Below, piece by piece: positions 1,160 through 57,055 of a stretch of 64,000 nt of DNA. The notes under the pieces were generated by a model that was given only the letters and a program-made list of their open reading frames with translations, did no database searches and had not been told where the DNA came from. The position numbers and the translations under genes were made by a program. Source of the stretch: a virus. Lineage: Duplodnaviria > Heunggongvirae > Uroviricota > Caudoviricetes. The first letter of the stretch is position 1, and each line of letters begins with the position of its first letter. Location: the IMG/VR virus record IMGVR_UViG_3300000976_000008, positions 111,223 through 175,222 of that record. The stretch is one strand, 5' to 3'.

Positions 1160-2578
1160 TTAATTTATCGGAGAAGGCATCTTAACATTCAACATATAAC
1201 CGCCGCGACTTGGAGAAAGAAACCTATCAAAAGAAAGCCCCCAAACCATTGGATCAAGCACATGTATATCTAGCAAGAAGCAGACCAGAGACCCACCAGC
1301 ACTCCCACGAGGGCTAAAAGGCCACCCTCTTTTCTTACCAAAACTCACCAGATCTCTAGTAATAAGGAAATAGCTGGCAAAACCTTTTTCAATGAATCTA
1401 TTCAATTCGATCTTCGCTTGTTGCAAATAGGTCACTTCACGACCATCGATTATAAACTTATCGTCTCGTTTATCCAAACCTCTCTTCTTCAGAGATAGAG
1501 CAACCAGTTTTCTAAGTTCATTGTCTTCGTCCTTGATTTCTGGAATCTTTGGGGATGTGTCAACATCAAAAGCTGTACAACGATCTGCTACCATCAAGGT
1601 ATTGTCACACATCGTCTCAAAGACACCATCATCCATTCCCTTCGAGTATCCATTATTCTTAAACTGAGACCACAATTCAGCTCGTGTTTTCATGAACTGT
1701 TCGTCACTGTTGACATGAAACAAGTCGGGTGAATCAATAGTAGTATCTTGAGCAACAGCCATCATGATTTTTTGAAGCATGAAGTCCTTGCGTCTAAGGT
1801 AGTGACAATCATTCGCTAAAACTGTTGGTATCTTATAATGATCAGCCATACCAATTAAAGAACGAAATACTATATCGTCATCTGGAATACCAGGCATTTG
1901 TAATTCGATATAGTAATCTTCACCGAAAGCTTTCTTGAACTTCTTAACCCACTTGGAAGCATCTTTGGCTCTATCAGACAAAGTCCTCTCACTCAGAACA
2001 TTGCCTTCTTTATCTGTCAATTGCTTGTATCTAAGTTCATGGGCGACAGGCCCATTCAAGCATCCAGAGAGAACGATCAATCCTTCTTTATATTCACATA
2101 ATTTATCGAACCAGATTCTATTCATCTGCATTCTACCCATACCAAACAATCCAGTCTCGTAAGCTTGAGTAGTCAACTTTATCAGATTATGAAATCCAGT
2201 TTTATTCTTACAAAGAACAGTGAGATGTCGATTCCTAAACAATCTCGCAGCAAGCTCTGGATTCTGTGCTCGCCAATCTTGGGAACGAATTTTAGTCCCT
2301 TGAGCAACCATCTTTCTTCGAAGCGGTTCATAATCATTAAAGTAGATCTCACATCCAGGAATATACTTAACACCTACTTTCTTAAAGGCTAAGTACATAT
2401 CCGGCACCGAAGCCATATGGCCATGTTCGGTCGCACTCATGGCAGGATAACCACGTTCAGAGCATTGTTGGGCATATTGCTCTGGAGTCGCTACACCATC
2501 CAACGCGGAAAACACAGTATGGTTGTGTAAGTGGACAAACTCAGTCGGTCCGCTATACTCTTCCGGTTCGAATGGCAT
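1160..2578 (-). CDS. dnaE: DNA polymerase III alpha (family C), N-terminal part only: PHP domain up to RGSAGGS
   Basis: FVHLHNHTVFSALDG, TEHGHM, IPGCEIY, GLIVLSGCLNG, ANDCHY, RGSAGGSLVCFLLDI..RFLSPSR; ends at TAA before the PDIDxD motif. Confidence 0.92.
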   Translation of the reverse strand: MPFEPEEYSGPTEFVHLHNHTVFSALDGVATPEQYAQQCSERGYPAMSATEHGHMASVPDMYLAFKKVGVKYIPGCEIYFNDYEPLRRKMVAQGTKIRSQDWRAQNPELAARLFRNRHLTVLCKNKTGFHNLIKLTTQAYETGLFGMGRMQMNRIWFDKLCEYKEGLIVLSGCLNGPVAHELRYKQLTDKEGNVLSERTLSDRAKDASKWVKKFKKAFGEDYYIELQMPGIPDDDIVFRSLIGMADHYKIPTVLANDCHYLRRKDFMLQKIMMAVAQDTTIDSPDLFHVNSDEQFMKTRAELWSQFKNNGYSKGMDDGVFETMCDNTLMVADRCTAFDVDTSPKIPEIKDEDNELRKLVALSLKKRGLDKRDDKFIIDGREVTYLQQAKIELNRFIEKGFASYFLITRDLVSFGKKRGWPFSPRGSAGGSLVCFLLDIHVLDPMVWGLSFDRFLSPSRGGYMLNVKMPSPIN

Positions 2579-22415: not shown

Positions 22416-24257
22416 ATGCTAGAATTAAAATCTGTAGCCTGGCGAAACTTCATGTCGTATGGCGACTATGAAACTACGCTAGAATTAGATCAACTTGGTC
22501 AGTGTCTAATAACAGGCCAAGTAAACGATGATGATAAATCATTACTCCAAGCTAGCACAAATCCCTTATCGGCATGTCGATCGAATGGTGCCGGGAAATC
22601 TACTGTTGTCAATGTGATTCAATGGGTTCTCTTTGGCAGGACAATGCACTCAGCAAGTCCTGGTGACAAAGTGATCAATTTCTTCACCGGAAAGAATTGC
22701 TGGGCCAAAATCACCTTCAAGAATGGTGATAGTATATTACGCACCAGAAAAGTGGGAAATCACAGTGAATTACATTATGTGAAGGACGGTAACGATACCA
22801 GTCTTACTAGTGATACACTATCAACTGCTCGAAATCAGCAAAAACAACTCAATAGGGAATTCGGCCTTGATTGGGAAGTATTTTCCGGTTCCGTATTCTT
22901 CAATCAGTATGGCAAACCCTGGATGGAGATGGCCGACTCAACACGCAAGAAAGCTATTGAGAGAGTTCTGCATGTTGATAAATTCGCATATTATGCTGAA
23001 AATGCGAATAGTAAATGTCAAGTCCTCGATAAACAAATTGAGGATAGACGCCGCAAGATAGAAACCAACGGAGAGGCCATCGGGAGGGCCGAGAATAATA
23101 TCGAAAGGCTACAGAGGGCATCCGACAACTACGGGGCCAGCAAAAAAGAAAGAATGAAAGAAAGGCTACAACAAGCCGTCCAAGAAAAAGAGAAACGAGG
23201 TGCCATAGAAAAGCCAGACCTCGATAAACTCAAAGGGAAATGGGCAATTGTTGACAAGATCGAAGCAAGAATCTCCAAAATCCAAAAAGATGATATAAAT
23301 CGGTTGAATCGAGAAATATCTTCAACCGAAGGGGATATAGATTCCCTTAAATCCAAAATAAAGAGATGGGAGGCAAAATCAGGGAAAGTATGCAACGCTT
23401 GCGAACAGCCAGTACCAGACACGCATACCGCCGCAAAAATTGAACCAATCTCTGAAATGCTCGAAGAAAAGCAAGAAGAACTCAAGACCAAGAAAGAAGA
23501 GCTGGCAAAAGTTCGAAAAATGCTCAAGGTCGCTGAAACCATGCTACAAGAGCGTAAGCCAGACATGACAATGCGTGCCGCCAAAGACCTTCATAGCTCA
23601 TGGGATAGACACACTTCTGCGATTAAAAGGCTAACTGCTGAAGTAGCAGAAATCAAGGCTGAGACTAATCCCCATACTGAAGCAATTGCGGAAGCTAAAG
23701 GGCGAGTTGAAAAATATAAAGCCGATATGGTGGTTCTTGAGAAAGAGATCGAAGAAGATACTTATCTCAACCGACACTATAAGTATATTTATAAAGCCTA
23801 CAACGATCGAACCAAGATCAAGAGCTTTGTCTTCAAAGAGCATATTCCTTTCATCAATAGTAGATTAAGGCATTATCTCGATGTTTTCGGTCTCGATATC
23901 CAGTTAGAACTTACTCCAGCACTCGGTATCAAGAGTAATATGTGGGGATATGAATTCGAATCTGGTGGTGAGAGAAAAAGGACCGACGTGGCCTTCATGC
24001 TCGCCATGTTCGATTTCCACGAACAGATGTATGGGCGGCAATGCAATATACTGGTCTTGGACGAAGTTGATGGCCGTCTCGACGATGATGGAATAGAATC
24101 ATTAATCGACATCATCAAAAGCGATCTCGCTCCTAAGGTGGAGACCGTGCTAATTATTTCACATAGGAATATGATGCATGACACATTCCCATGTGAGTTG
24201 AGGGTTGCGAGAACTGATAGATTTTCGCAAATTATCCAAGCTGGTATTGGCGTCTAG
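22416..24257 (+). CDS. sbcC: Rad50/SbcC/gp46-like SMC-family ATPase
   Basis: NFMSYG, NGAGKS (Walker A), coiled coil with CNAC hook, ESGGE signature, LVLDE (Walker B), ISH. Confidence 0.92.
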   Translation: MLELKSVAWRNFMSYGDYETTLELDQLGQCLITGQVNDDDKSLLQASTNPLSACRSNGAGKSTVVNVIQWVLFGRTMHSASPGDKVINFFTGKNCWAKITFKNGDSILRTRKVGNHSELHYVKDGNDTSLTSDTLSTARNQQKQLNREFGLDWEVFSGSVFFNQYGKPWMEMADSTRKKAIERVLHVDKFAYYAENANSKCQVLDKQIEDRRRKIETNGEAIGRAENNIERLQRASDNYGASKKERMKERLQQAVQEKEKRGAIEKPDLDKLKGKWAIVDKIEARISKIQKDDINRLNREISSTEGDIDSLKSKIKRWEAKSGKVCNACEQPVPDTHTAAKIEPISEMLEEKQEELKTKKEELAKVRKMLKVAETMLQERKPDMTMRAAKDLHSSWDRHTSAIKRLTAEVAEIKAETNPHTEAIAEAKGRVEKYKADMVVLEKEIEEDTYLNRHYKYIYKAYNDRTKIKSFVFKEHIPFINSRLRHYLDVFGLDIQLELTPALGIKSNMWGYEFESGGERKRTDVAFMLAMFDFHEQMYGRQCNILVLDEVDGRLDDDGIESLIDIIKSDLAPKVETVLIISHRNMMHDTFPCELRVARTDRFSQIIQAGIGV

Positions 24258-28771: not shown

Positions 28772-29161
28772 ATGAAAATCTACGTCGGCAGCAGTCTACT
28801 TAATTCTAAACGAGTTAAGGAAGTACAACAGCGTTTTAAAGATGCTGGTTGCATTATAACTTATGACTGGACTGTTCACGGTCAAGTGACCGATGAAGAA
28901 TTATTGGCTAAATATGCTGTTGCAGAATTGCAAGGCGTAAAAGAAGCTGATATATTTTTCATGCTCTTGCCTGGCAGAAACGGCACGCACTTTGAGATGG
29001 GTGTAGCCCACGCAAGTGGCAAGAAGATAGTGATGCTCATCGAACAAGATCAAGAATTGAAGACATTCTATTATCTTGATGGTGTCGAACGTTTCACCGA
29101 AGAAGATCTTGCATTTGATTACGTTATCGATTTCTTGAAGAATATGGAAATTGCTGGATGA
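28772..29161 (+). CDS. Nucleoside 2-deoxyribosyltransferase/NMP N-glycosidase fold protein
   Basis: MKIYVGS..VKEADIFF..GTHFEMGVAHASGKKIV (catalytic Glu retained); start set at MKIY. Confidence 0.8.
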   Translation: MKIYVGSSLLNSKRVKEVQQRFKDAGCIITYDWTVHGQVTDEELLAKYAVAELQGVKEADIFFMLLPGRNGTHFEMGVAHASGKKIVMLIEQDQELKTFYYLDGVERFTEEDLAFDYVIDFLKNMEIAG

Positions 29162-29859
29162 TTTTTACCAGACTAGAAATAGATGTAATGCAAGCCAATG
29201 AATTGGTTGATGCATCAGAATTGGCGGCTAAACACAAATTTCCAGCATTAGTCGTGCACCAAGATTTGGCCTCTGAAGCACAAATAATTCGTGGTCGAAT
29301 TCGCGGCAGATACAAATTGATAACACCTATTGATTGGCCTAAAGGAGAAACTTACGGTCAAAATAAATTGAGAGGTTTATCAACAGACGCTCTAGATAAT
29401 GATGGATTTGAGATTCTGCTGACTGGTGAGAGAACCGTAACTGAGACACGCAGAGAAGCGAAAGATATCTCAGAATTCGTGAAAACACACATCGATCAAT
29501 CTTTAGAAGTGCGTTTCGTGCTTGGAACAAATTTGCGAACAGAAGAAAATATTCGCAATATGTGTATTGCTTTGCAAGATGTAAGGATGCCAGCCTTTGT
29601 AAGAAACGATACAGCTCTAAAATTACAAGTTAGCAGAGCTAATCCTGATGTTCATAAAGCTAATATGGGAATCATCACCGAATATATGAGAGTCCCAATG
29701 AAAATCAGTGGTAATATTAATAGTGTGCGTGCCATAACATCTTGCACAAACGCAAAAAGATTCGCTGTCAATCTACTTCAAGCAAAAGGTATAACTAAGG
29801 AGTTCCTGCAACAGCCGGAAGAACTTAGAGCCTTGCTTGATTCAGAAGATGGAAAATAA
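29158..29859 (+). CDS. DeoC (deoxyribose-phosphate aldolase)-like TIM barrel, divergent
   Basis: ITPIDWPKG..K ~ TVIGFPLG..K; PMKISGNI ~ VKASGGI; FVRNDT where DeoC has FVKTST. Confidence 0.55.
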   Translation: MIFTRLEIDVMQANELVDASELAAKHKFPALVVHQDLASEAQIIRGRIRGRYKLITPIDWPKGETYGQNKLRGLSTDALDNDGFEILLTGERTVTETRREAKDISEFVKTHIDQSLEVRFVLGTNLRTEENIRNMCIALQDVRMPAFVRNDTALKLQVSRANPDVHKANMGIITEYMRVPMKISGNINSVRAITSCTNAKRFAVNLLQAKGITKEFLQQPEELRALLDSEDGK

Positions 29860-30181
29860 ATTAATTATTTGCCCATACTGTAGCAACAGCGTAAGCGAAG
29901 TAGACTCGAACAACTACTATTGTGTATGTTGCGAGAAGAATCTCAGATTTACGTTCGAAACCCAAACATTGCTATATAGGAACTTTAAGCCTATTTCTGA
30001 GGAAATTCCAAAAGTATTTGAAATAGGTGAGGAGGTGCTCTTTGCTAATAGAGAGCATCCTTGGTACAACAAATTAGGGATAATTTGTGAAAGGAAACAC
30101 AAACAGTATCGAATTGAAATCAACGGCAAAAAACTTTGGGTGCCCAACGAATGGGTAAAAGAGAATCAAAATGGACATTAA
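29837..30181 (+). CDS. Zn-ribbon plus KOW/SH3-like small protein
   Basis: CPYC..CVCC; FEIGEEV..GIIC..YRIEINGKKLWV. Confidence 0.55.
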   Translation: MIQKMENKLIICPYCSNSVSEVDSNNYYCVCCEKNLRFTFETQTLLYRNFKPISEEIPKVFEIGEEVLFANREHPWYNKLGIICERKHKQYRIEINGKKLWVPNEWVKENQNGH

Positions 30182-30551
30182 TCTAAAGGGCCGGATTAAT
30201 GAATTGGGGCAAGACTCCACTTTGTTAACCAGACATGATGATTGGCTTGAAACTCAAAGAGCTTCTTTGCAGGGCGACTTAGAAGATAAAGCAACTCAAC
30301 TAAAAGCTGTACTGCTAGCACAACGAATCAAACGTGCTCTTCAACAAAAGAACCTTGTAGCAGTCCAACAATTGATCAAATCAAACGATGGGGACGTTGT
30401 TGATATAGTGATCAATATAATGAAATTGCCAGACGCACTATTGGCATTAAGAACAGAAACCACCGAATTAGATAAAGCCAACGCTCAGGCACAAATCTTC
30501 GGATGGGATAGAGATGGTTACGATACCGTCACGTCTAGTAAACTGAGATAA
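30171..30551 (+). CDS. Hypothetical helical protein
   Basis: 126-aa ORF. Confidence 0.65.
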   Translation: MDINLKGRINELGQDSTLLTRHDDWLETQRASLQGDLEDKATQLKAVLLAQRIKRALQQKNLVAVQQLIKSNDGDVVDIVINIMKLPDALLALRTETTELDKANAQAQIFGWDRDGYDTVTSSKLR

Positions 30552-30615: not shown

Positions 30616-31779
30616 ATGCAAAATCGCAGTTTTAATGTAGTAACAGACGGTGCTTGGGGCAGTTGCGGTAAAGGGCTTATAACAACAGCTCTAGCATCAA
30701 AGCATCAGCCAGAAATAATTTCGACCACAAATATGGCCAACGCAGGCCATACCGCCGTTTATGATGATGGTCGGAAATTCATAGCCAAAGTCTTGCCATC
30801 AGCTGCTGCACTCCGAAAATGGGTCGATGGTTATGATCCCCACATCGTTGTAGGAAGCACAGCTGCATTTACTATTGAGCAGCTTCATAAAGAGATCCAG
30901 GAAACAGGGTCCAATTATCAGTTAACTATCCACGAGAGAGCAGGGATAATAACTGAAGCTCAACGCCAAGCAGAACAAAGCTTGAAAACCGGCACCAAAC
31001 ATCTAGCAAGCACAATGCAGGGATGTGGTGCATTCCTCGCCGACAAGGTGATGAGAAGAAAAGAGCTTAAACTCGCCAGCGACTACGAAGAGCTAAAAGC
31101 TTACATGCCATCAAGCATGGGAAGTAAAATCGATAATGTCGAATCCGAAATAAACCGAAGACTCGAAGGAATGAGTCTCCCGATGGCACTGTCGACACTG
31201 GTCAAAGAATTCGATATGACCATTCTACACGAAGGTGCCCAAGGTTTCTCTCTCGACATCAACCACGGTTCGCACTATCCTCAATGCACAAGCAGAGGAA
31301 CAACCGCGATACAGAACCTATCTGATATGGGATTACCCCACACAATGATGGGAGACGTTTATCTCGTAATCAGACCGTACCCGATTAGAGTCGGCAATGT
31401 TGTCGAAGAAGGGAAAACTGTTGGTCACTCTGGTGATTGTTATGATGACCACAAAGAGACAACATGGAGAGAAGTTGCTGAATCTGCAGGTGCACCACCA
31501 GAAGTGATGGATGGTGAATTAACCACAGTAACAAAGAGACTGAGAAGAGTCTTCGAATTCTCCGAGAAGCAACTCAAAGAAGCTGTGCTTGTAAACGGTG
31601 CCACCAAGATAGCATTGAATTTCGCCAATTATCTTGATTGGTCATGCTATGGTACCAACGAATACGAAAAATTGCCTAAGAAAGTCACTGAATTCATCTG
31701 CAAGGTAGAAGATGTTGCTGGTATTCCAGTGACTGTTGTAGGAACAGGACCACAAAACAACCATGTCTGCTTCATCTGA
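30616..31779 (+). CDS. purZ: PurZ-type 2-amino-deoxyadenylosuccinate synthase (adenylosuccinate synthetase family)
   Basis: WGSCGKG (Ser replacing PurA Asp13), NMANAGHT, EGAQGFSL, PIRVG, ELTTVTKRLRRVF, LNFANY; strong AAGGAG RBS. Confidence 0.85.
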   Translation: MQNRSFNVVTDGAWGSCGKGLITTALASKHQPEIISTTNMANAGHTAVYDDGRKFIAKVLPSAAALRKWVDGYDPHIVVGSTAAFTIEQLHKEIQETGSNYQLTIHERAGIITEAQRQAEQSLKTGTKHLASTMQGCGAFLADKVMRRKELKLASDYEELKAYMPSSMGSKIDNVESEINRRLEGMSLPMALSTLVKEFDMTILHEGAQGFSLDINHGSHYPQCTSRGTTAIQNLSDMGLPHTMMGDVYLVIRPYPIRVGNVVEEGKTVGHSGDCYDDHKETTWREVAESAGAPPEVMDGELTTVTKRLRRVFEFSEKQLKEAVLVNGATKIALNFANYLDWSCYGTNEYEKLPKKVTEFICKVEDVAGIPVTVVGTGPQNNHVCFI

Positions 31780-31866: not shown

Positions 31867-32697
31867 ATGGGTGAGACAAGTAGTATATCCGGATCGAGTA
31901 ACAGAAGGTTACTCAGAGTCGCCGCTTACTTGGAAGAAGCGGGGGAAGATCCCGAAACAGCCTGTGACAACCTCTTAGAGTTAGACATACCCTATATCGC
32001 ATTGAAGCAGGTCTGGACCGACAATATAGGCAGAATACCAGATCCTGCTTGCCAAAAACTCCAAAAAGTCATCCAATCGAAAAAGATGACAGTAATAATG
32101 CTCGCCACCGAACTAGGCGAAGTGTCTGCTGACGAATTGAAAAGCGTCAGAGATGAAGAAATAGAACGAATCTTCAATAGGGCAGCATACTTCCAAGCAC
32201 CATTTATAAGGATTGGTATAGGTAAATCATGTTCTGTTGATTGCCACGATGAAGTAAATGAATGGATGAATAGAATAACTCATAAAGCCATCCAGTATAA
32301 TGTAACACCAGTTATAGAGATAACTCACAATTCATTTGTCGATAAACCAAGTGATATAGCAACGATATTGTTGACACATAAACGTTGGAAACTCCTGTAC
32401 GATCCCGCCCAATACATTCTTCGCAAGAAACAAGACCCATTTATTAAGTATTGGACGTTGCTTAAGTCTAACACTGCTGTAATTGATGTTAGGGATCTGA
32501 AAATAGGCAAAGGATTCAAAGCACCAGGATTTGGAGATTCAAGGATTGGGGATACAATAAAAGACGCCATAGATTCAAATTACGATGGTTGGTATGTAAT
32601 TGAACCATCCCTCGGAAGAAGACATGGTAGTGCACTTTCTAAGAAAGAGACGTTCACTCAAGCCGTAAGTGCATTTGATGTTCTATTAGAGCAGTAA
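31867..32697 (+). CDS. Xylose-isomerase-like (AP_endonuc_2) TIM barrel with partly degenerate metal sites
   Basis: YIALKQVWTDNI, PVIE, LLYDPAQ, IDVRD, PGFGDSRI, GWYVIEP. Confidence 0.7.
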   Translation: MGETSSISGSSNRRLLRVAAYLEEAGEDPETACDNLLELDIPYIALKQVWTDNIGRIPDPACQKLQKVIQSKKMTVIMLATELGEVSADELKSVRDEEIERIFNRAAYFQAPFIRIGIGKSCSVDCHDEVNEWMNRITHKAIQYNVTPVIEITHNSFVDKPSDIATILLTHKRWKLLYDPAQYILRKKQDPFIKYWTLLKSNTAVIDVRDLKIGKGFKAPGFGDSRIGDTIKDAIDSNYDGWYVIEPSLGRRHGSALSKKETFTQAVSAFDVLLEQ

Positions 32698-33930: not shown

Positions 33931-36900
33931 ATGTCAACAGGAACTGCAGGCCCATTCGAGCATATAAAAAGGCCAATTTGTGGCGAAGCCGCAGAAATAA
34001 GCCAATCTACATTCGTAGAACTAATCTCAATAAAAGAAGTCTACACAAGGGCAATATATAGGGATAATCCCAATGTATGTGTAGCACTGAGACGCTTAGC
34101 TTTTGGAAAAACTCCAAGAGAATTACCAGAGCCACCCCCAGAGAGAGGGTTTGAAATCCTCCCCGCACCACCATTACCTAGGAATACAATTCCTATACCA
34201 GTTGGTGGGAATAATACCCCAGTGCCAACACCGACACCGGGCGGAGGTTCTGTGCCGGGAGGTCCAATATTCACCAGCCAATCCGCAGAAGAGAAAATTG
34301 CAGGATTAGGAATTGCTAAAGCAAGCGTTGAATTCAGAGACCTAATAATTAATAATGAATCATTTGCAACTACTCAAATGAGTAATTGTGCCATGATTGC
34401 CGGAGATAATGCACCACCAATTACGCCAGCAAATTGCCCAGAAAGTGACTGTAACGTAGATGCGGCATTCTCCATCGATATCAGCGGAAGTATGCAAAGT
34501 GCGATCGACGCTGTAAAAATTGGTGCTGCCGAAATGGCAGACCTTATTTCATCTGTCTCAAATGGCAGTTATAGGTTCGGACTAAGTCACTTCGGACAAT
34601 CTGATAATGGTGGTAATTTACTCGTACCACTCCCACTCACAGACCAGCAATGCCAGAATATAAATCTATTCCAAGCTAATGTTGATAATCTAACTGTGAG
34701 TGGTGGACACGAACCATGGCACCAAGTCCTAACATATGTCCAAGATAATAAAGACACAGAATGGACATTTAGAGATAACAGTGATGCCAGAATTGTTTTC
34801 GTAATCACCGACGAAGCAAGTGATGTAAAAGCTGACGAAGCATTGGCTGCCGCAATAGAAATGGGCAGATGTGGAGTCAGATGGGTGGGAATTTGGACCG
34901 AAACAAGGCACCCAAACACGCTTACATCAACAGGTTCGATGCAAAGTCAAGGAGCTTCAACCTACGGTGAATTTTTCGATATGCTGGCCGCAGCATCTAA
35001 TGGCCTATGGGTACACTCACCCAATGGTATTGATATGCTCCCATTGATGACTAGTTTCATTCTAAGTGTCTGTGGTAGCGTAGTAAGAGAAATTCCAGAA
35101 TGTCCGGGCGGTGAGGATAAAGTAACAAACGGTAAATTCGAAACAAGCATCGCCGGATGGAATGATGAAACAACTGGTGCCGGATCAGTAGATTGGGACG
35201 AAACAACAGAATCGATGAAATTATCCGGGATTGCTAGCCAAGAAATAGCGGGGCTAGCACCAGGTGATATCGCTATTATGGGTTTTGGCATCCATTTAGA
35301 ATCAGCCACTGTAGGCGGAATCTTAGAATATCGACTTGAAAGCGGTTCTGGTGATATTTTAGAATCTGCTCAAATATTATCGAGTGACCTAGGAGTGGGC
35401 CAAGATAATGTTATCAGGTTTGATCTTCAAACGACCATCCAATTAGACGGGGCTATCAAGATAGTCTTCGATTCAGAAGTGGGATCAATTACTGATTTCT
35501 ATGTTGATAATGTTCTCCTTTGTGTCTTAAAGGAAGACGATTGCGGTCCCGGATCTAGGAATCTGATTCAAAATCCAAACTTCGATGAAGGTATAATCGC
35601 TTGGAACGATTCATCGAACACCCCAATCACACCTCACACAGATCCTGAGGTGTGGGACAGTTTAACTCAATCAATAATTGTCAGTCTTACCGGTGAACCA
35701 GAAGTAAGAACTGATGTAACTGATCTAAGACCGGGTGAGAATTACAGTCTAAACTTTGAACTCTCTTCATTTGAGCCAGAAGTTATTGAAGAACTTGAAT
35801 TCATCTATGGTATACTAGATGCTTCGAACAATGTGATAATTGAAAACACCATCACTCGTGGAGATGCTGATCCACCACAAAGATTACAAGTTGACTTCAT
35901 AGCTCCAGCGGATGGATTCTGTAGAGTGTTTTTCAAAGGTGGAACAACAAGTGGTGTTGTTAAACTACGAAACATTTTACTATGCGACACATCTGGAGAT
36001 TGTGAAGAAGGCTTTGATAAAGTCTCGTTCGACGACTTTGAAACAACTAGAGGAGCTTGGGCTGGAGGACGACATGACCTTCTAGAAAAGTACATCATAC
36101 TTGAAAGTGCTGGTGGTGATGACAAGCTACAACAAACATTCACTTCACTAGAACCTGGAACCACTCTACAAGTCAGTTTCAGCTCACTGAATGTAGGTTC
36201 TAACAATCTGTTGATAGAACTTCATTCTGGCGGTGTTATCAATCAAGATTCTATAACGAGTGCTGGATCATATGTATACACTATAGTGGTGCAGGATACT
36301 GGTATTGTTTCGGTAATAGTCCAAAATCTTGATACAGCAGAAAGTGCTGTAGACAATATTCTGGTTTGCTCCCAAGCATCACCTGATTGTGATGGAAGCA
36401 TAACAGATGTAGAACTGATGGTTGAATGGGACGGTATTCCAAGGAGCCCAGTTAATATTTTCAATGCGATAGCAAGGTATACGATCAGAAACCCGAATGA
36501 TCCATTCGATTTGACGACCGAAACGCATATTGCTAACACAGAGGGTGTTTTAGGACTTTCATCTTGCGACACATGGAAACAAGAAGGTCAAGGTGGCAAC
36601 CCACAAGCAAATGTTCTTGCTTTTGGGCTTAACAACGCTGCTGCAGCAGCAGTAAATGAGGGAGATGAAGCAAATGTCTCCTCAAGAGGAAACTGGATTT
36701 GGTCGATTCCGAATTCGGGTAGCATGCAAGATGTTCTGAATGTTTCATTCCCTGCTCCACCAGCTGGGTTGATTGAGAGCGTTGAATTTTTCCTATTGAC
36801 GCAACAAGCAACACCAAGCGGTAGCGGCACTAGCCCCATTCTTCCCCCACCACTTTCTTGTAGCCCAGATCCAGCTCAAGATCTTCAAATAACCATTAGG

Positions 36901-39741
36901 TATAAGAATAATAGGAGCTTGCAGAGAGAATTCACTCAGAAAATTGGATTGAATGAATTATTGATACAATCGACAGACTTCACTTCCGGTTCTCCTTGGG
37001 ATACTATCTCTGGTGTTGGTAATGGTAAAAAGGGAAGCACAGCTCGATGGGAATCGTTCATATTCGAATTAGATGCTGCAGACGGGAGTGGATTAGATCA
37101 ATGTACGCCTCCTTTATTCTTTTCAGCATCTGGTCAAGGAACATTAGAATTTCCAGATTTTAGCCTCACAAACAGTAGAGGAATTTTTGTTGATTCGTGT
37201 TTGGCAGAGATCGATGTTACTAATATAGCCGCTGGTGAAAATACCAATGAGGTTCAAATAGTTGTACTCCCTTCTCCAACCGGTGGATTCTGGAACCTTT
37301 CCTTCGATTTTGGAACTGTTGAAACTACTCCAAATATCCCTTGGAATGCTACTGCTTTACAAGTTCGAAATCGTTTGGTGACCTTAAGCAACATCAATAC
37401 TGTTAATAATATTGAGGTATCTGGTGCGGGATCTCCGACTGACCCTTATTTGGTCACGTTTAAAGGTGCATTGGGATCTCAAGATCATAATCTTCTAATT
37501 GCAGATGGTTCAAATTTAGCTGGGTCCGCGTCGGCTATCATCGCAACAACCAATGATGGTAGTGTCAATGAGAGGCAAATCATTGAAACAACAACGAGCA
37601 CAATCCAAAACTTAGAGATCACTTTCAATGGCGAAACAACTATACCTCTACCATTCAATAGATCCTTAAAAAATGCACAAACAGCTTTAGAAGGTCTATC
37701 CACGATCGGTGTTGGAAATGTTTTAGTAACTGGTGATACTACCGATCGTGAATCAAGCTATTCTGGAAGATTAATAGTTGATTTCATTGGAAGTCTAGGT
37801 GGCCAAAATGTCTCTTTAATGACAGTGGAACCATCCGCTAATTATTCAAATAGTCTTGCTTGGCAAGGCGGTTTTGCTCCAGGAGGAGGAATCAATGAAC
37901 GGCAACAGATTACGGTTGAAGCGTTCGGAGGCAGTTACGTTCTCAGAGTCTTTGATGTTGGAGGAACCGTCCCCGCAGTTGATATCGGAACAACAACCGA
38001 TGGGAACACATCAAATGTTGACTGTTATGATATTACTTTTGGCGGCACTCTCGAAGGGCAGAACATCGACCTGAACACCTTCTTTAGCCCAGATAGTGGG
38101 CCAGCACCGTTTTCACATTCACAACAAAATATTCAAAATGGAGAAGCTGGAACAAACCCAATACCAGAAATCCAAAGACATTGCTTTACATGGTTGTTGG
38201 GTGACGGCGGGATTGGGACAGATGACTCACTATTTGGCTTAGAATCACCAAGTGATCCAATATTCATCGATATACTTGATACTGTTGGCCCAACCCCACT
38301 CGTCAAAGGAATCGATTCTTCAGTAGCAATTGCAGCATACTTAGAATCAGCGTTGGCGGTACCAGCAAACAGTATCACTGTCGTAGCAAGTAGCTTATCA
38401 AACGCTGTAAATGAAGTTCAAACAGCAACCGTTACTGGAGCACCTATTGGTGGAACATTCGCATTAGTTGTTGAAGGCCAAGAAACAGTACCAATCTCTT
38501 TCTCAGCACCAGCGATTGATGTTCAGAACGCAATAAACAGTTTATCAAACGTCTCAGATGTGGCAGTAGCAAAATCTGGCACACTGCCAGCAGATGTGAT
38601 ATATACGATCACATTCCAAGGTGAAGATGGCGGCAAAAACTGGCAAACAATTGTTGGTAAAGCAGATAATCTGGCCAACGGTAGTGCGTTCGCCGACACA
38701 GCTCCAATACCATATAATGCTTCTGCTCAAATGGTAAAAGATGCTTTGGTTGGGGCTGCAATATGGTTGTCCGATAGCGATTTGGATATAACTAGAGATT
38801 CAGACACAGATAACATCTACAAATGGACAATCGAGTGGGCTGGAAACTATTTGAGAGAGAATATTCCTCAAATGCAAATCAGTGGTGCCCAATTGGCTGG
38901 TGGAGATATTTTTGTAAGTGAAAATCTCAAAGGCACTGGCAGCAATGATCAACAGAGATTGAGAATTGTCAACGCAACGGGGGGTTCATTCACATTATCT
39001 CTAACGATCGATGGAGTAACTGACGAAACAACATCTATCCCATGGAACACAACAGCTGAAGGATTAAAAGCTCAGTTATTACAATTAAGCTTCTTTGACG
39101 CACCTGGTCAACTAGATGTGGTTGATGAGTATCCCGATAGATTACCACCAAGTCCAATCAATGCATCATTTGTGATAATATTCCAAAAGAGATTTGGTGA
39201 TATCCCATTGCTGGTTCCAACATTCCAAGAATCTCTACTTTGTGACCCAATTGTTTTACCACATGTTGATCCTGGTCCATATGGCTATCCTGTCCCGATT
39301 GATGATAATGAGGAATCATGCCAATCTGGCTTCCAGTTGCAAAGACCAGCCGAAAGTGAAGGAGCAATAGAAGAGATAGAATCTTGCTGTGATTCGGGTT
39401 CTATCAGCGATACTGCAAATCAATCTTCTAGATTACAACTAGAAAGAGATCTGTTTGATCCCAATAGAAAAGCTGGCGATCGGTTGTTGACGGTTAGAGA
39501 TCTCGCAAAATTAAAAGGATTGCAGATAAATAATTATGTCCCATATATCAGAGATTTTATTACAAATGATCTAGCTCCAGTGTCATGGCATACTATTGTG
39601 AAACCAAAGGATAGTTTCATTTTGATAGAGGGGCATCTCACAACACGACGTGGAAGAGAAAGAATTTCTAATTATCTGAGTAGCAATCGAGAAATATTGC
39701 CATCAAGATTCGTTTGGAATTCGATGAGCAATAATTTGTAA
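33931..39741 (+). CDS. 1936-aa vWA-domain protein with carbohydrate-binding-like modules and internal repeats (probable virion/adhesion protein)
   Basis: MIDAS DISGS..VITDE; N[GP]xF[ED]..W modules; five N[ED][VRQ]Q-initiated repeats at 37246, 37567, 37894, 38410, 38944. Confidence 0.75.
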   Translation: MSTGTAGPFEHIKRPICGEAAEISQSTFVELISIKEVYTRAIYRDNPNVCVALRRLAFGKTPRELPEPPPERGFEILPAPPLPRNTIPIPVGGNNTPVPTPTPGGGSVPGGPIFTSQSAEEKIAGLGIAKASVEFRDLIINNESFATTQMSNCAMIAGDNAPPITPANCPESDCNVDAAFSIDISGSMQSAIDAVKIGAAEMADLISSVSNGSYRFGLSHFGQSDNGGNLLVPLPLTDQQCQNINLFQANVDNLTVSGGHEPWHQVLTYVQDNKDTEWTFRDNSDARIVFVITDEASDVKADEALAAAIEMGRCGVRWVGIWTETRHPNTLTSTGSMQSQGASTYGEFFDMLAAASNGLWVHSPNGIDMLPLMTSFILSVCGSVVREIPECPGGEDKVTNGKFETSIAGWNDETTGAGSVDWDETTESMKLSGIASQEIAGLAPGDIAIMGFGIHLESATVGGILEYRLESGSGDILESAQILSSDLGVGQDNVIRFDLQTTIQLDGAIKIVFDSEVGSITDFYVDNVLLCVLKEDDCGPGSRNLIQNPNFDEGIIAWNDSSNTPITPHTDPEVWDSLTQSIIVSLTGEPEVRTDVTDLRPGENYSLNFELSSFEPEVIEELEFIYGILDASNNVIIENTITRGDADPPQRLQVDFIAPADGFCRVFFKGGTTSGVVKLRNILLCDTSGDCEEGFDKVSFDDFETTRGAWAGGRHDLLEKYIILESAGGDDKLQQTFTSLEPGTTLQVSFSSLNVGSNNLLIELHSGGVINQDSITSAGSYVYTIVVQDTGIVSVIVQNLDTAESAVDNILVCSQASPDCDGSITDVELMVEWDGIPRSPVNIFNAIARYTIRNPNDPFDLTTETHIANTEGVLGLSSCDTWKQEGQGGNPQANVLAFGLNNAAAAAVNEGDEANVSSRGNWIWSIPNSGSMQDVLNVSFPAPPAGLIESVEFFLLTQQATPSGSGTSPILPPPLSCSPDPAQDLQITIRYKNNRSLQREFTQKIGLNELLIQSTDFTSGSPWDTISGVGNGKKGSTARWESFIFELDAADGSGLDQCTPPLFFSASGQGTLEFPDFSLTNSRGIFVDSCLAEIDVTNIAAGENTNEVQIVVLPSPTGGFWNLSFDFGTVETTPNIPWNATALQVRNRLVTLSNINTVNNIEVSGAGSPTDPYLVTFKGALGSQDHNLLIADGSNLAGSASAIIATTNDGSVNERQIIETTTSTIQNLEITFNGETTIPLPFNRSLKNAQTALEGLSTIGVGNVLVTGDTTDRESSYSGRLIVDFIGSLGGQNVSLMTVEPSANYSNSLAWQGGFAPGGGINERQQITVEAFGGSYVLRVFDVGGTVPAVDIGTTTDGNTSNVDCYDITFGGTLEGQNIDLNTFFSPDSGPAPFSHSQQNIQNGEAGTNPIPEIQRHCFTWLLGDGGIGTDDSLFGLESPSDPIFIDILDTVGPTPLVKGIDSSVAIAAYLESALAVPANSITVVASSLSNAVNEVQTATVTGAPIGGTFALVVEGQETVPISFSAPAIDVQNAINSLSNVSDVAVAKSGTLPADVIYTITFQGEDGGKNWQTIVGKADNLANGSAFADTAPIPYNASAQMVKDALVGAAIWLSDSDLDITRDSDTDNIYKWTIEWAGNYLRENIPQMQISGAQLAGGDIFVSENLKGTGSNDQQRLRIVNATGGSFTLSLTIDGVTDETTSIPWNTTAEGLKAQLLQLSFFDAPGQLDVVDEYPDRLPPSPINASFVIIFQKRFGDIPLLVPTFQESLLCDPIVLPHVDPGPYGYPVPIDDNEESCQSGFQLQRPAESEGAIEEIESCCDSGSISDTANQSSRLQLERDLFDPNRKAGDRLLTVRDLAKLKGLQINNYVPYIRDFITNDLAPVSWHTIVKPKDSFILIEGHLTTRRGRERISNYLSSNREILPSRFVWNSMSNNL

Positions 39742-56479: not shown

Positions 56480-57055
56480 ATGCTGCGACTCAAACGACTA
56501 AGTAAGAACGATCTTGATCTCCCAAAATACGAGACAGATCAATCATCCGGCATCGACTTCGCAGCATGTCTAACAAGAACCTGCAAACTTGTAAACCACA
56601 GGCTGAAAGAAAAGACGAAATTCCTAACGGTCAATAATACTGCCGGTAGGACGAGACACTCATTCGTCGAAGATGAAGCACCAGAAATTCCTCAAACCAG
56701 CAATAATGGTGAGGAAATCATACTTGATATCAGGTGTGGAGAAACTATCATGGTCCCACTAGGGTGGGCCTGTGGATTTGAAGAGAATTTCGTCATGCAA
56801 CTGCATGTCAGATCATCTATCGGTTTGAATGGTCTTACTCTTGCTAACTCTACTGGGATTATCGATTCTGACTATCGCGGTGAACTCTTCGCTTGCCTCT
56901 ATAACAGAACAAGTGCACCGATTCAGATTACGCACGGGCAAAGAATCGTCCAAGCCATCATGTTGAAATGCGATCAGATGGATATCCGAGAAGAAGCAGA
57001 ATTGATGGAAACTGCTCGCGGCGAAGGCGGATTCGGTTCAACTGGAACGGCGTAA
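56480..57055 (+). CDS. dut: Trimeric dUTPase with an insertion between motifs 1 and 2
   Basis: SGIDF, RSSIG, GIIDSDYRGE, RIVQ, RGEGGFGSTG. Confidence 0.93.
   Translation: MLRLKRLSKNDLDLPKYETDQSSGIDFAACLTRTCKLVNHRLKEKTKFLTVNNTAGRTRHSFVEDEAPEIPQTSNNGEEIILDIRCGETIMVPLGWACGFEENFVMQLHVRSSIGLNGLTLANSTGIIDSDYRGELFACLYNRTSAPIQITHGQRIVQAIMLKCDQMDIREEAELMETARGEGGFGSTGTA

Follow-up and report, generated by a model that had tools for sequence, protein, structure and literature searches.

A PurZ-type gene in huge phages with a split DnaE polymerase: a possible route to 2-aminoadenine DNA without the classical helpers

To our knowledge, the phages so far reported to have 2-aminoadenine (Z) genomes are all small siphoviruses or podoviruses, of about 40-80 kb. 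In such phages PurZ or PurZ0, both relatives of adenylosuccinate synthetase (PurA), is paired with DatZ and MazZ or with DutZ and DmtZ, and with either the PolA-type polymerase DpoZ or PrimPol. The catalytic Asp13 is 99% conserved in PurA, and Ser is universal at this position in phage PurZ and PurZ0 (PMC12884076). In phage S-2L the polymerase is non-selective and complete substitution therefore depends on DatZ; PurZ of S-2L itself consumes dATP (PMC8342488). DmtZ of the PurZ0 phages, an enzyme from the family of nucleoside deoxyribosyltransferases (NDT), hydrolyses dAMP to adenine and moves deoxyribose-5-phosphate to the Z base (PMC12884076). In this study, a PurA-family gene (called purZ below, and its product the query) was analysed in a stretch of 64,000 nucleotides of viral DNA. 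This stretch, referred to as the window, corresponds to C1:111223-175222 of a single IMG/VR record of 408,349 bp with a CheckV completeness of 100%. The gene has the active-site signature of PurZ and belongs to a lineage of huge phages with a family C polymerase. We consider it rather likely that phages of this lineage incorporate 2-aminoadenine into their DNA without the classical helpers, and we lean, with somewhat more caution, towards a substantial Z content of the virion DNA.

The open reading frame (ORF) of purZ is intact and uninterrupted. It encodes 387 amino acids from an ATG start, with a Shine-Dalgarno sequence (AAGGAG) 8 nt upstream. The match to the PurA family is far beyond chance: Pfam PF00709 (adenylosuccinate synthetase) covers residues 9-341 at an E-value of 1.3e-35, and phrog_1211 ('2-aminooxy adenylosuccinate synthetase') was matched at 1.8e-61. 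In a search of the PDB, PurZ of phage phiVC8 (6FM1/6FKO) ranked first at 6e-36, followed by PurA of Pyrococcus horikoshii (1e-34) and S-2L PurZ (7ODX, 2e-32). Three motifs had been quoted in the initial annotation, namely GAWGSCGKG (residues 12-20), ELTTVTKRLRRVF and LNFANY. All three are present in the translation, and alignment confirmed their positions: the first corresponds to QWGDEGKG of E. coli PurA, the second to the aspartate loop, and the third to TKLD.

At the positions of phiVC8 F12, S14, T262 and N294-Y298 the query reads W-S-T-N-F-A-N-Y, compared with F-S-T-N-F-C-N-Y in phiVC8 PurZ, F-S-T-N-F-A-N-Y in SH-Ab 15497 PurZ, F-S-T-D-N-L-E-A in Wayne PurZ0 and W-D-G-T-K-L-D-V in E. coli PurA. 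The pattern of Ser14, T262 and N-F-x-N-Y is that of the PurZ proteins of phiVC8, S-2L, SH-Ab 15497 and PMBT28. The hallmarks of PurA (catalytic Asp13 and the GTP-binding (N/T)KxD) were not found in the aligned query, which has Ser and N-F-A-N instead. The nucleotide site of the PurZ0 type was likewise not found in the alignment, N-F-A-N-Y occupying the place of D-N-L-E-A in Wayne. Judging by these residues, the nucleotide site of the query is of the ATP type (N-F-x-N/Q-Y), neither the PurZ0 site nor the GTP site of PurA.

This agreement extends to the ligand-binding pocket. The contacts of S-2L PurZ with its ligands involve Y21-S23, N49, A50, T132, Q190, R240, V241, T273-T276, R280, N305, F306, Q308, G335 and P336, and V241 together with the insertion that follows it disfavours a 2'-OH (PMC8342488). 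Of the 29 ligand-contact positions of the S-2L enzyme, 27 have the same residue in the query as in characterised PurZ. The PurZ-specific insertion after R-V is also present and is longer than that of S-2L. In all 118 close homologues (118/118) the residues S23, N49, A50, T132, Q190, R240, V241, the TTVT loop, R280, N305, F306, N308, G335 and P336 (S-2L numbering) are invariant. Two segments, ELTTVTK with the tip of the TTVT loop and PIRVGNVVEEGKTVGHSG with R-V plus the insertion, do not change among these homologues. Ser occupies the Asp13 column in all 148 aligned rows apart from E. coli PurA, with two further rows gapped; most of these rows represent the nearest clusters, formed at 50% identity, in a library of 1.84 billion proteins. 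The Ser for Asp13, the aspartate-loop sequence and LNFANY, noted at the outset from the sequence alone, are therefore confirmed, and the agreement with PurZ extends to features that are invariant in the 118 close homologues. On these residues the 387-aa protein is, with good probability, a PurZ enzyme.

A tree of PurA, PurZ and PurZ0, proposed in the initial annotation, was built in a quick version of 145 rows and a careful version of 61 rows (IQ-TREE, LG+C20+F+G4 with posterior mean site frequencies (PMSF); supports are ultrafast bootstrap/SH-aLRT). The two trees agree. The query stands apart from the Asp-bearing PurA and also from PurZ0 (Wayne, Nubia, Galactica, Typher), which forms a clade with 100/100 support. 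The characterised PurZ proteins (phiVC8, S-2L, SH-Ab 15497, PMBT28) form a clade of five rows (100/98) within a clade of 13 rows. Separate from these characterised proteins, the query belongs to an 8-row clade of huge phages (100/98) nested inside a 25-row clade (100/99). The topology places the query on the PurZ side of the PurZ/PurZ0 split, so that its descent would agree with its active site in marking it as PurZ-like. The 25-row clade also includes the PurZ of a 43-kb IMG/VR contig (L028). On this contig, the neighbourhood of purZ is the classical one of Z phages, with a DUF5664 dATP/dGTP diphosphohydrolase domain and a full PolA that includes an exonuclease domain.

The PurZ clade of the query is large, and the phages that carry it are uncultured, huge (about 150-440 kb) and T4-like, with a split DnaE. 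A total of 1896 homologues was found at E<=1e-10. Identity to the query is 59-77% for the best 120, many of which are on contigs of 150-440 kb. In IMG/VR, 22 related loci were identified on contigs of up to 395 kb, two of which have direct terminal repeats and an estimated completeness of 100%. No protein of a cultured phage is more than 38% identical to the query (the best isolate is Bacillus phage vB_BpsS-140, 37.7%), and a search of 50,697 phage records detected no near DNA relative of the region. The family is essentially confined to viruses: representative genomes of 185,579 prokaryotic species yielded a single PurZ-clade locus (L045). This locus is on a 76-kb contig of a Lentisphaeria metagenome-assembled genome (MAG; JBAZJM010000002.1); its PurZ shares 44% identity with the query, and its sister in the tree is a sequence from a 429-kb contig. 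The locus probably represents a phage fragment binned into the MAG; alternatively, it may hint at the host of the lineage represented by the 429-kb contig. The same MAG has a normal PurA on another contig.

Inteins are typical of strongly constrained proteins. Several homologues of 750-1200 aa (P0121, P0126, P0138) contain one or two inteins with LAGLIDADG homing endonucleases, and at L031:6869-10504 the N- and C-terminal parts of purZ are separated by about 3 kb. The conservation of the gene with an intact site across a deep lineage, together with the inteins, suggests a core function.

The window contains the N-terminal half of a DnaE-type replicative polymerase (Table 1). The catalytic half is encoded just before the window, at C1:108070-110832. 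A split DnaE was found in 9/9 related huge-phage records. It had been claimed from the window that DnaE is the only polymerase visible. This holds within the window; the genome as a whole also carries the second DnaE half and a minimal family-A polymerase of 444 aa (palm only, 39 bits in total), which is encoded about 15 kb ahead of the window and 46 kb from purZ. The latter was considered as a DpoZ and rejected, as it is a minimal palm without a 3'-5' exonuclease domain and is not near purZ.

No datZ, mazZ or dpoZ lies beside purZ, as had been reported for the window, and the absence was found to hold over all 408,349 bp and in related records. Searches of the genome by tblastn with the DatZ, MazZ and DpoZ proteins of Bhz9 gave a best E-value of 0.18, and nothing for DpoZ. 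None of the profiles phrog_7076, phrog_801, PF13023, PF03819 and PF01966 matched. By these profile searches the genome lacks DatZ (phrog_7076, HD_3), any HD domain, MazZ/DUF550-DUF5664 (phrog_801) and MazG. A D12 adenine methylase was not found in it either. In the nine related huge-phage records there was no HD_3 match over the cut-off (no DatZ), no DUF5664 and no MazZ. In one relative of 356 kb, an HD-domain gene (G007:C1:305502-305876, 43 bits) lies directly beside the DnaE pieces, whereas the genome of the window has none. Helper sets may differ within the lineage.

Similar combinations were observed outside these records. On a 40-kb contig (L039:8934-11158) a full-length DnaE, NDK, DnaB and a T4-type dNMP kinase (DNMK) accompany a PurZ that is 50% identical to the query. 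The start of that purZ is overlapped by an adenosine-deaminase-family gene (PF00962), which represents another possible way of removing adenine nucleotides. The 429-kb contig carries a PurZ-like gene with subunits of the pol III clamp loader, ribonucleotide reductase and ThyX. Since the combination occurs in 9/9 records and on the 40-kb and 429-kb contigs, the presence of PurZ alongside a family C replicase, with no classical Z-cluster, is a recurrent pattern and not peculiar to one contig.

Table 1. Features of the window discussed in the text (positions are those of the window).
Feature	Position	Strand	Evidence and remarks
N-terminal (PHP) half of split DnaE-type family C replicative polymerase	1160..2578	-	PF07733 in two separate frames
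SMC/Rad50-like ATPase	22416-24257		PF02463, AAA_23; block with the following genes collinear with the purZ region in most relatives
NDT-superfamily gene	28772..29161	+	About 129 aa from ATG; ORF opens at TTG 28718; PF05014 2.3e-7
DERA-fold (DeoC-like) TIM-barrel protein	29158..29859	+	233 aa; overlaps the NDT gene by ATGA; AF2 pLDDT 86
Two small conserved ORFs	29837..30551	+	114 aa, with Cys-rich motifs, and 126 aa; between the DERA-fold gene and purZ
Gene for a probable PurZ-type succino-amino-deoxyadenylate synthase, huge-phage clade	30616..31779	+	PF00709, phrog_1211, signature residues, ribosome-binding site
Sugar-phosphate isomerase/epimerase-like TIM barrel	31867..32697	+	PF01261 5.7e-10; directly 3' of purZ; syntenic in 15/23 loci
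Divergent second dUTPase-family paralogue	56480..57055	+	191 aa; PF00692 65.8 bits; five Dut motifs readable, insert of about 45 aa after motif 1

The gene order around purZ is kept in 17-19 of 23 related loci. It runs from the SMC/Rad50-like ATPase through three unknown genes to the NDT gene, the 233-aa gene, the two small ORFs, purZ and the PF01261 barrel. The NDT gene is syntenic with purZ in 17/23 loci. As the genes around purZ are different in L027 (395 kb) and in L028, synteny with the NDT and DERA-fold genes is not universal in the wider clade.

The AlphaFold2 (AF2) model of the NDT-fold protein has a predicted local distance difference test score (pLDDT) of 95.6. Foldseek matched it to the CMP N-glycosidases BcmB/MilB, the dNMP N-hydrolase DNPH1/Rcl and nucleoside deoxyribosyltransferases. 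Of the catalytic residues, Y4 and E75 are invariant and D60 is nearly so. Based on this model, a role as (d)NMP N-glycosidase or deoxyribosyl(-phosphate) transferase can be proposed for the protein, which is possibly a functional analogue of DmtZ. It has been reported that NDT domains are enriched on restriction-resistant contigs presumed to contain dZ (bioRxiv 10.1101/2025.10.22.683976). The NDT gene is neither fused to nor next to a Dut gene; the two Dut genes of the genome are 25 kb and more than 200 kb away.

The 233-aa protein encoded next to it gave no family hit in Pfam, PHROG and NCBIfam scans, and a profile search of the PDB returned nothing. The top 50 PDB matches of its structural model are all deoxyribose-5-phosphate aldolases (DERA), with TM-scores of 0.7-0.8 and E-values down to 1e-11, and a structure search of the Atlas also returned DeoC. 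The gene is present in 9/9 related huge-phage records. By hhalign, only the N-terminal motif could be aligned with E. coli DeoC (ITPIDWPKGE with TVTNFPHGN). On the basis of strand register and motif, strand 148-151 reads F-V-R149-N (then D-T) where E. coli has F-I-K167-T-S-T. R149 is invariant, K155 follows six residues later, and the counterparts of K201 and D102 of E. coli DERA are kept as K182 and E85. The two small ORFs between this gene and purZ had no Pfam or PHROG match; homologues occur at the same position in 9-13 related loci. The PF01261 barrel has an Atlas feature score of 0.96 and a TM-score of 0.84 to clusters of sugar phosphate isomerases/epimerases; its link to a Z pathway is uncertain.

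The divergent dUTPase-family paralogue recurs in five related genomes (G001, G003, G004, G006, G009). Among isolates, the closest matches are ordinary phage dUTPases, with 31-34% identity. A relationship to DutZ was considered and found no specific support, the nearest relatives being ordinary dUTPases of non-Z phages. The protein is a candidate dNTP pyrophosphatase, and a DutZ-like role, suggested by analogy, is speculative. A canonical dUTPase is encoded outside the window, at C1:384837-385223. In the corresponding region (G000:C1:384831-385934) a dUTPase domain ends a 367-aa frame whose N-terminal 230 residues are Cys-rich and homing-endonuclease/zinc-finger-like; the two parts may be fused, or the frame of an upstream gene may simply continue into the dUTPase. 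The genome also carries one Nudix gene. The NDT-fold protein, the second Dut and the Nudix protein make a plausible alternative helper set. The suggestion in the initial annotation that Z-DNA might be made with a different set of helpers thus fits the absence of the classical set and the presence of candidate substitutes; the roles given to these substitutes are those that their folds would predict.

Further downstream (33931-39741), a protein of 1936 aa showed a weak match to a VWA domain and weak PHROG matches to tail sheath and major tail proteins. A giant ORF is found at the same position in relatives.

In the pathway that we propose, the PurZ-type enzyme would convert dGMP, aspartate and ATP (or dATP) to N6-succino-2-amino-2'-deoxyadenylate (dSMP). 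The dGMP could be supplied by breakdown of host DNA, the phage being T4-like, and MazZ would thereby be dispensable. Host adenylosuccinate lyase (PurB) and host kinases would then lead from dSMP to dZTP. The NDT-fold enzyme encoded upstream of purZ would destroy or trans-glycosylate dAMP, and residual dATP might be lowered by the Dut-family or Nudix pyrophosphatase and by PurZ itself. DnaE would put Z opposite T because dATP is scarce, as has been established for S-2L with its non-selective PrimPol. A stronger form of this proposal can be stated, in which genomes of 150-440 kb are fully Z-substituted and replicated by a split DnaE without any known helper, adenine being excluded at the monophosphate level by the NDT-fold glycosidase and the DERA-fold protein. 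We offer this form tentatively and with some doubt.

Several observations weigh against Z incorporation by this lineage. The query scored 221.9 bits with the NCBIfam PurZ model NF038379 (amino_Aden_PurZ), below the cut-off of 300 that was passed by both controls (phiVC8 PurZ, 397 bits; Wayne PurZ0, 367 bits), and the archaeal-type PurA model NF003295 scored almost as high, at 208.4 bits. The cut-offs of the PurA models were also widely missed (368 for NF003295; 395.55 for TIGR00184, with which the query scored 134.8). By the criteria of curated hidden Markov models the query is therefore in neither the PurZ nor the PurA family, and because the PDB and NCBIfam scores are nearly equal, global similarity cannot tell PurZ from archaeal-type PurA here. 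The branch that joins the query to characterised PurZ (55 other rows, sister to PurZ0) is only moderately supported, at 95/54, and the root is less secure because the outgroup consists of two bacterial PurA sequences only, with no archaeal PurA. The 25-row clade has no assayed member. The pocket differs from that of S-2L PurZ by Y21->W (a backbone contact), G130->A and Y203->Q.

Other points of this kind concern the helpers. Neither PurB nor a DNMK was found in the genome of the window, and neither was a known dedicated dATPase of the Z type or a Z-selective polymerase. In one relative (L005) a D12-class (Dam-like) adenine methyltransferase is encoded close to the cluster, an unexpected gene for a phage with no adenine left. 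The NDT protein was tried as a member of the DmtZ family and rejected: tblastn gave no match in the 50,697 phage records, and hhalign against the DmtZ domain of Wayne gave an E-value of 0.016 and a probability of 2.9%. As it is not a detectable relative of DmtZ, it must have been recruited independently if it does the same job. In the model of the DERA-fold protein, the Schiff-base Lys appears to be replaced by the invariant Arg, and the protein may not be an aldolase; a simple scheme in which dAMP is drained by way of deoxyribose-5-phosphate and its cleavage thus has appeal but is uncertain. The synteny of the region may also reflect plain vertical inheritance in a collinear lineage. In sum, the claim of a PurZ in a DnaE phage stands as regards the PurZ signature, the absence of helpers and the lineage-wide DnaE, and has to be qualified in that the protein falls below the NCBIfam cut-off and outside the characterised clade, and DnaE is not the only polymerase.

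The near-equal scores leave room for an auxiliary purine gene, a short archaeal-type adenylosuccinate synthetase that acts on IMP (or dIMP) and boosts (d)AMP with no link to Z. Huge phages often carry auxiliary metabolic genes of nucleotide metabolism, and P. horikoshii PurA comes close to PurZ in the PDB search, as does NF003295 among the profiles. This reading is nevertheless contradicted, as far as sequence can tell, by every discriminating residue: an Asp that is 99% conserved in PurA (PMC12884076) is Ser in 118/118 homologues and in every ungapped aligned row other than E. coli PurA, N-F-A-N-Y takes the place of (N/T)KxD, the aspartate loop has Thr for Gly, and R-V is followed by the insertion that disfavours a 2'-OH. 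With the PurA cut-offs missed as widely as they are, we regard an ordinary PurA function as very improbable. A PurZ-fold enzyme that acts on another 6-oxopurine, for example one that converts GMP to 2-aminoadenylate for RNA or a cofactor, or that makes a further-modified purine, would account for the three pocket differences in an uncharacterised clade. Its neighbours would then form a separate pathway of nucleotide-sugar remodelling, and indeed three sugar or sugar-phosphate-type folds flank purZ, the Arg of the DERA-fold protein implying non-canonical chemistry. Such an enzyme would be without known precedent, and the residues expected to exclude a 2'-OH (V241 and the insertion) and those touching the 2-amino group of guanine are conserved; this reading appears improbable.

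The remaining alternative accepts a true PurZ that makes dZ nucleotides and differs as to their fate. The genome would be substituted partly or not at all, and the product would serve to consume dGMP and dATP set free from the DNA of the host, to skew nucleotide pools against the host or its defences, or to provide a stage-specific modification. The lack of a known dATP-specific hydrolase or Z-selective polymerase fits this picture, given that full substitution in S-2L needs DatZ (PMC8342488), and the Dam-like enzyme (MethyltransfD12) near the cluster of L005 agrees with it. Expression of purZ with partial helper sets in E. coli gives only partial replacement. On the other side, purZ has kept 60-77% identity and an invariant active site throughout a deep lineage and accommodates inteins, there are candidate enzymes for the removal of adenine, and all phages with Ser-type PurZ examined so far have been treated as Z-genome phages (PMC12884076). 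We judge partial or non-genomic use of the product to be unlikely, though it deserves more weight than the other alternatives, and retain incorporation of Z into the DNA of this lineage as the favoured interpretation.

In the literature searched, no link was found between PurZ or 2-aminoadenine and jumbo or huge phages or DnaE. The modifications listed in a 2026 review on jumbo phages are those with uracil, deazaguanine and acyl-adenine, and Z is not among them. The metaGPA preprint does not mention DnaE, pol III, DeoC or jumbo phages, and a paper on polymerase swapping does not mention PurZ or adenylosuccinate (PMC11348598). New relative to the known PurZ pathway are the PurZ clade itself, a roughly tenfold genome size, replication by a family C polymerase, and helpers that differ from the known ones and seem to be convergent. 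If Z incorporation is borne out, these would be the first huge phages with Z-DNA; Z genomes would extend to 400 kb and be common in huge phages of the environment. Z-DNA would be copied by a Pol III alpha of the bacterial type, the first such case on a family C polymerase. Independently evolved exclusion of adenine would constitute a third, convergent route to Z-DNA and would extend the 'functional convergence' already described (PMC12884076). The lineage would also provide new enzymes for making Z-DNA (the PurZ clade, the NDT-type enzyme and the replicase) and a marker for modified genomes in metagenomes.

Compared with the PurZ proteins of phiVC8, S-2L, SH-Ab 15497 and PMBT28 (6FM1/6FKO, 7ODX), the query shares the fold, the active-site signature and the side of the PurZ/PurZ0 split; it differs in its low identity (32-38%), its separate major clade and its score below the NCBIfam cut-off. 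Its genome differs from those of the Z phages in size and in having a DnaE replicase and no datZ/mazZ cluster, DpoZ or PrimPol. The short-form PurA of archaea (P. horikoshii, 5K7X/2D7U; NF003295) has a similar length, similar deletions relative to bacterial PurA and similar scores, but it possesses the catalytic Asp and the GTP site; the query has neither, and its 208 bits compare with a cut-off of 368. The 'PurA' of Bacillus phage vB_BpsS-140 is a Ser-type PF00709 protein with N-F-A-N-Y, long loop insertions and no classical Z-cluster beside its gene. Unlike the query, it belongs to a 55-kb siphovirus, falls in a different basal clade and has Ala for Thr at T262.

The closest parallel in helper logic is with the PurZ0 systems of Arthrobacter phage Wayne and Gordonia phage Ghobes, which use DutZ and DmtZ and have no DatZ or MazZ (PMC12884076). 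As in these systems, an NDT-superfamily enzyme is encoded near the synthetase and dUTPase-family genes are present in the genome. Unlike them, the query has an ATP-type site and lies outside the 100/100 clade of PurZ0, the polymerase is DnaE and not DpoZ-1, and the NDT protein has no detectable sequence kinship to DmtZ. The arrangement resembles the DmtZ/DutZ strategy of PurZ0 phages and is not derived from it.

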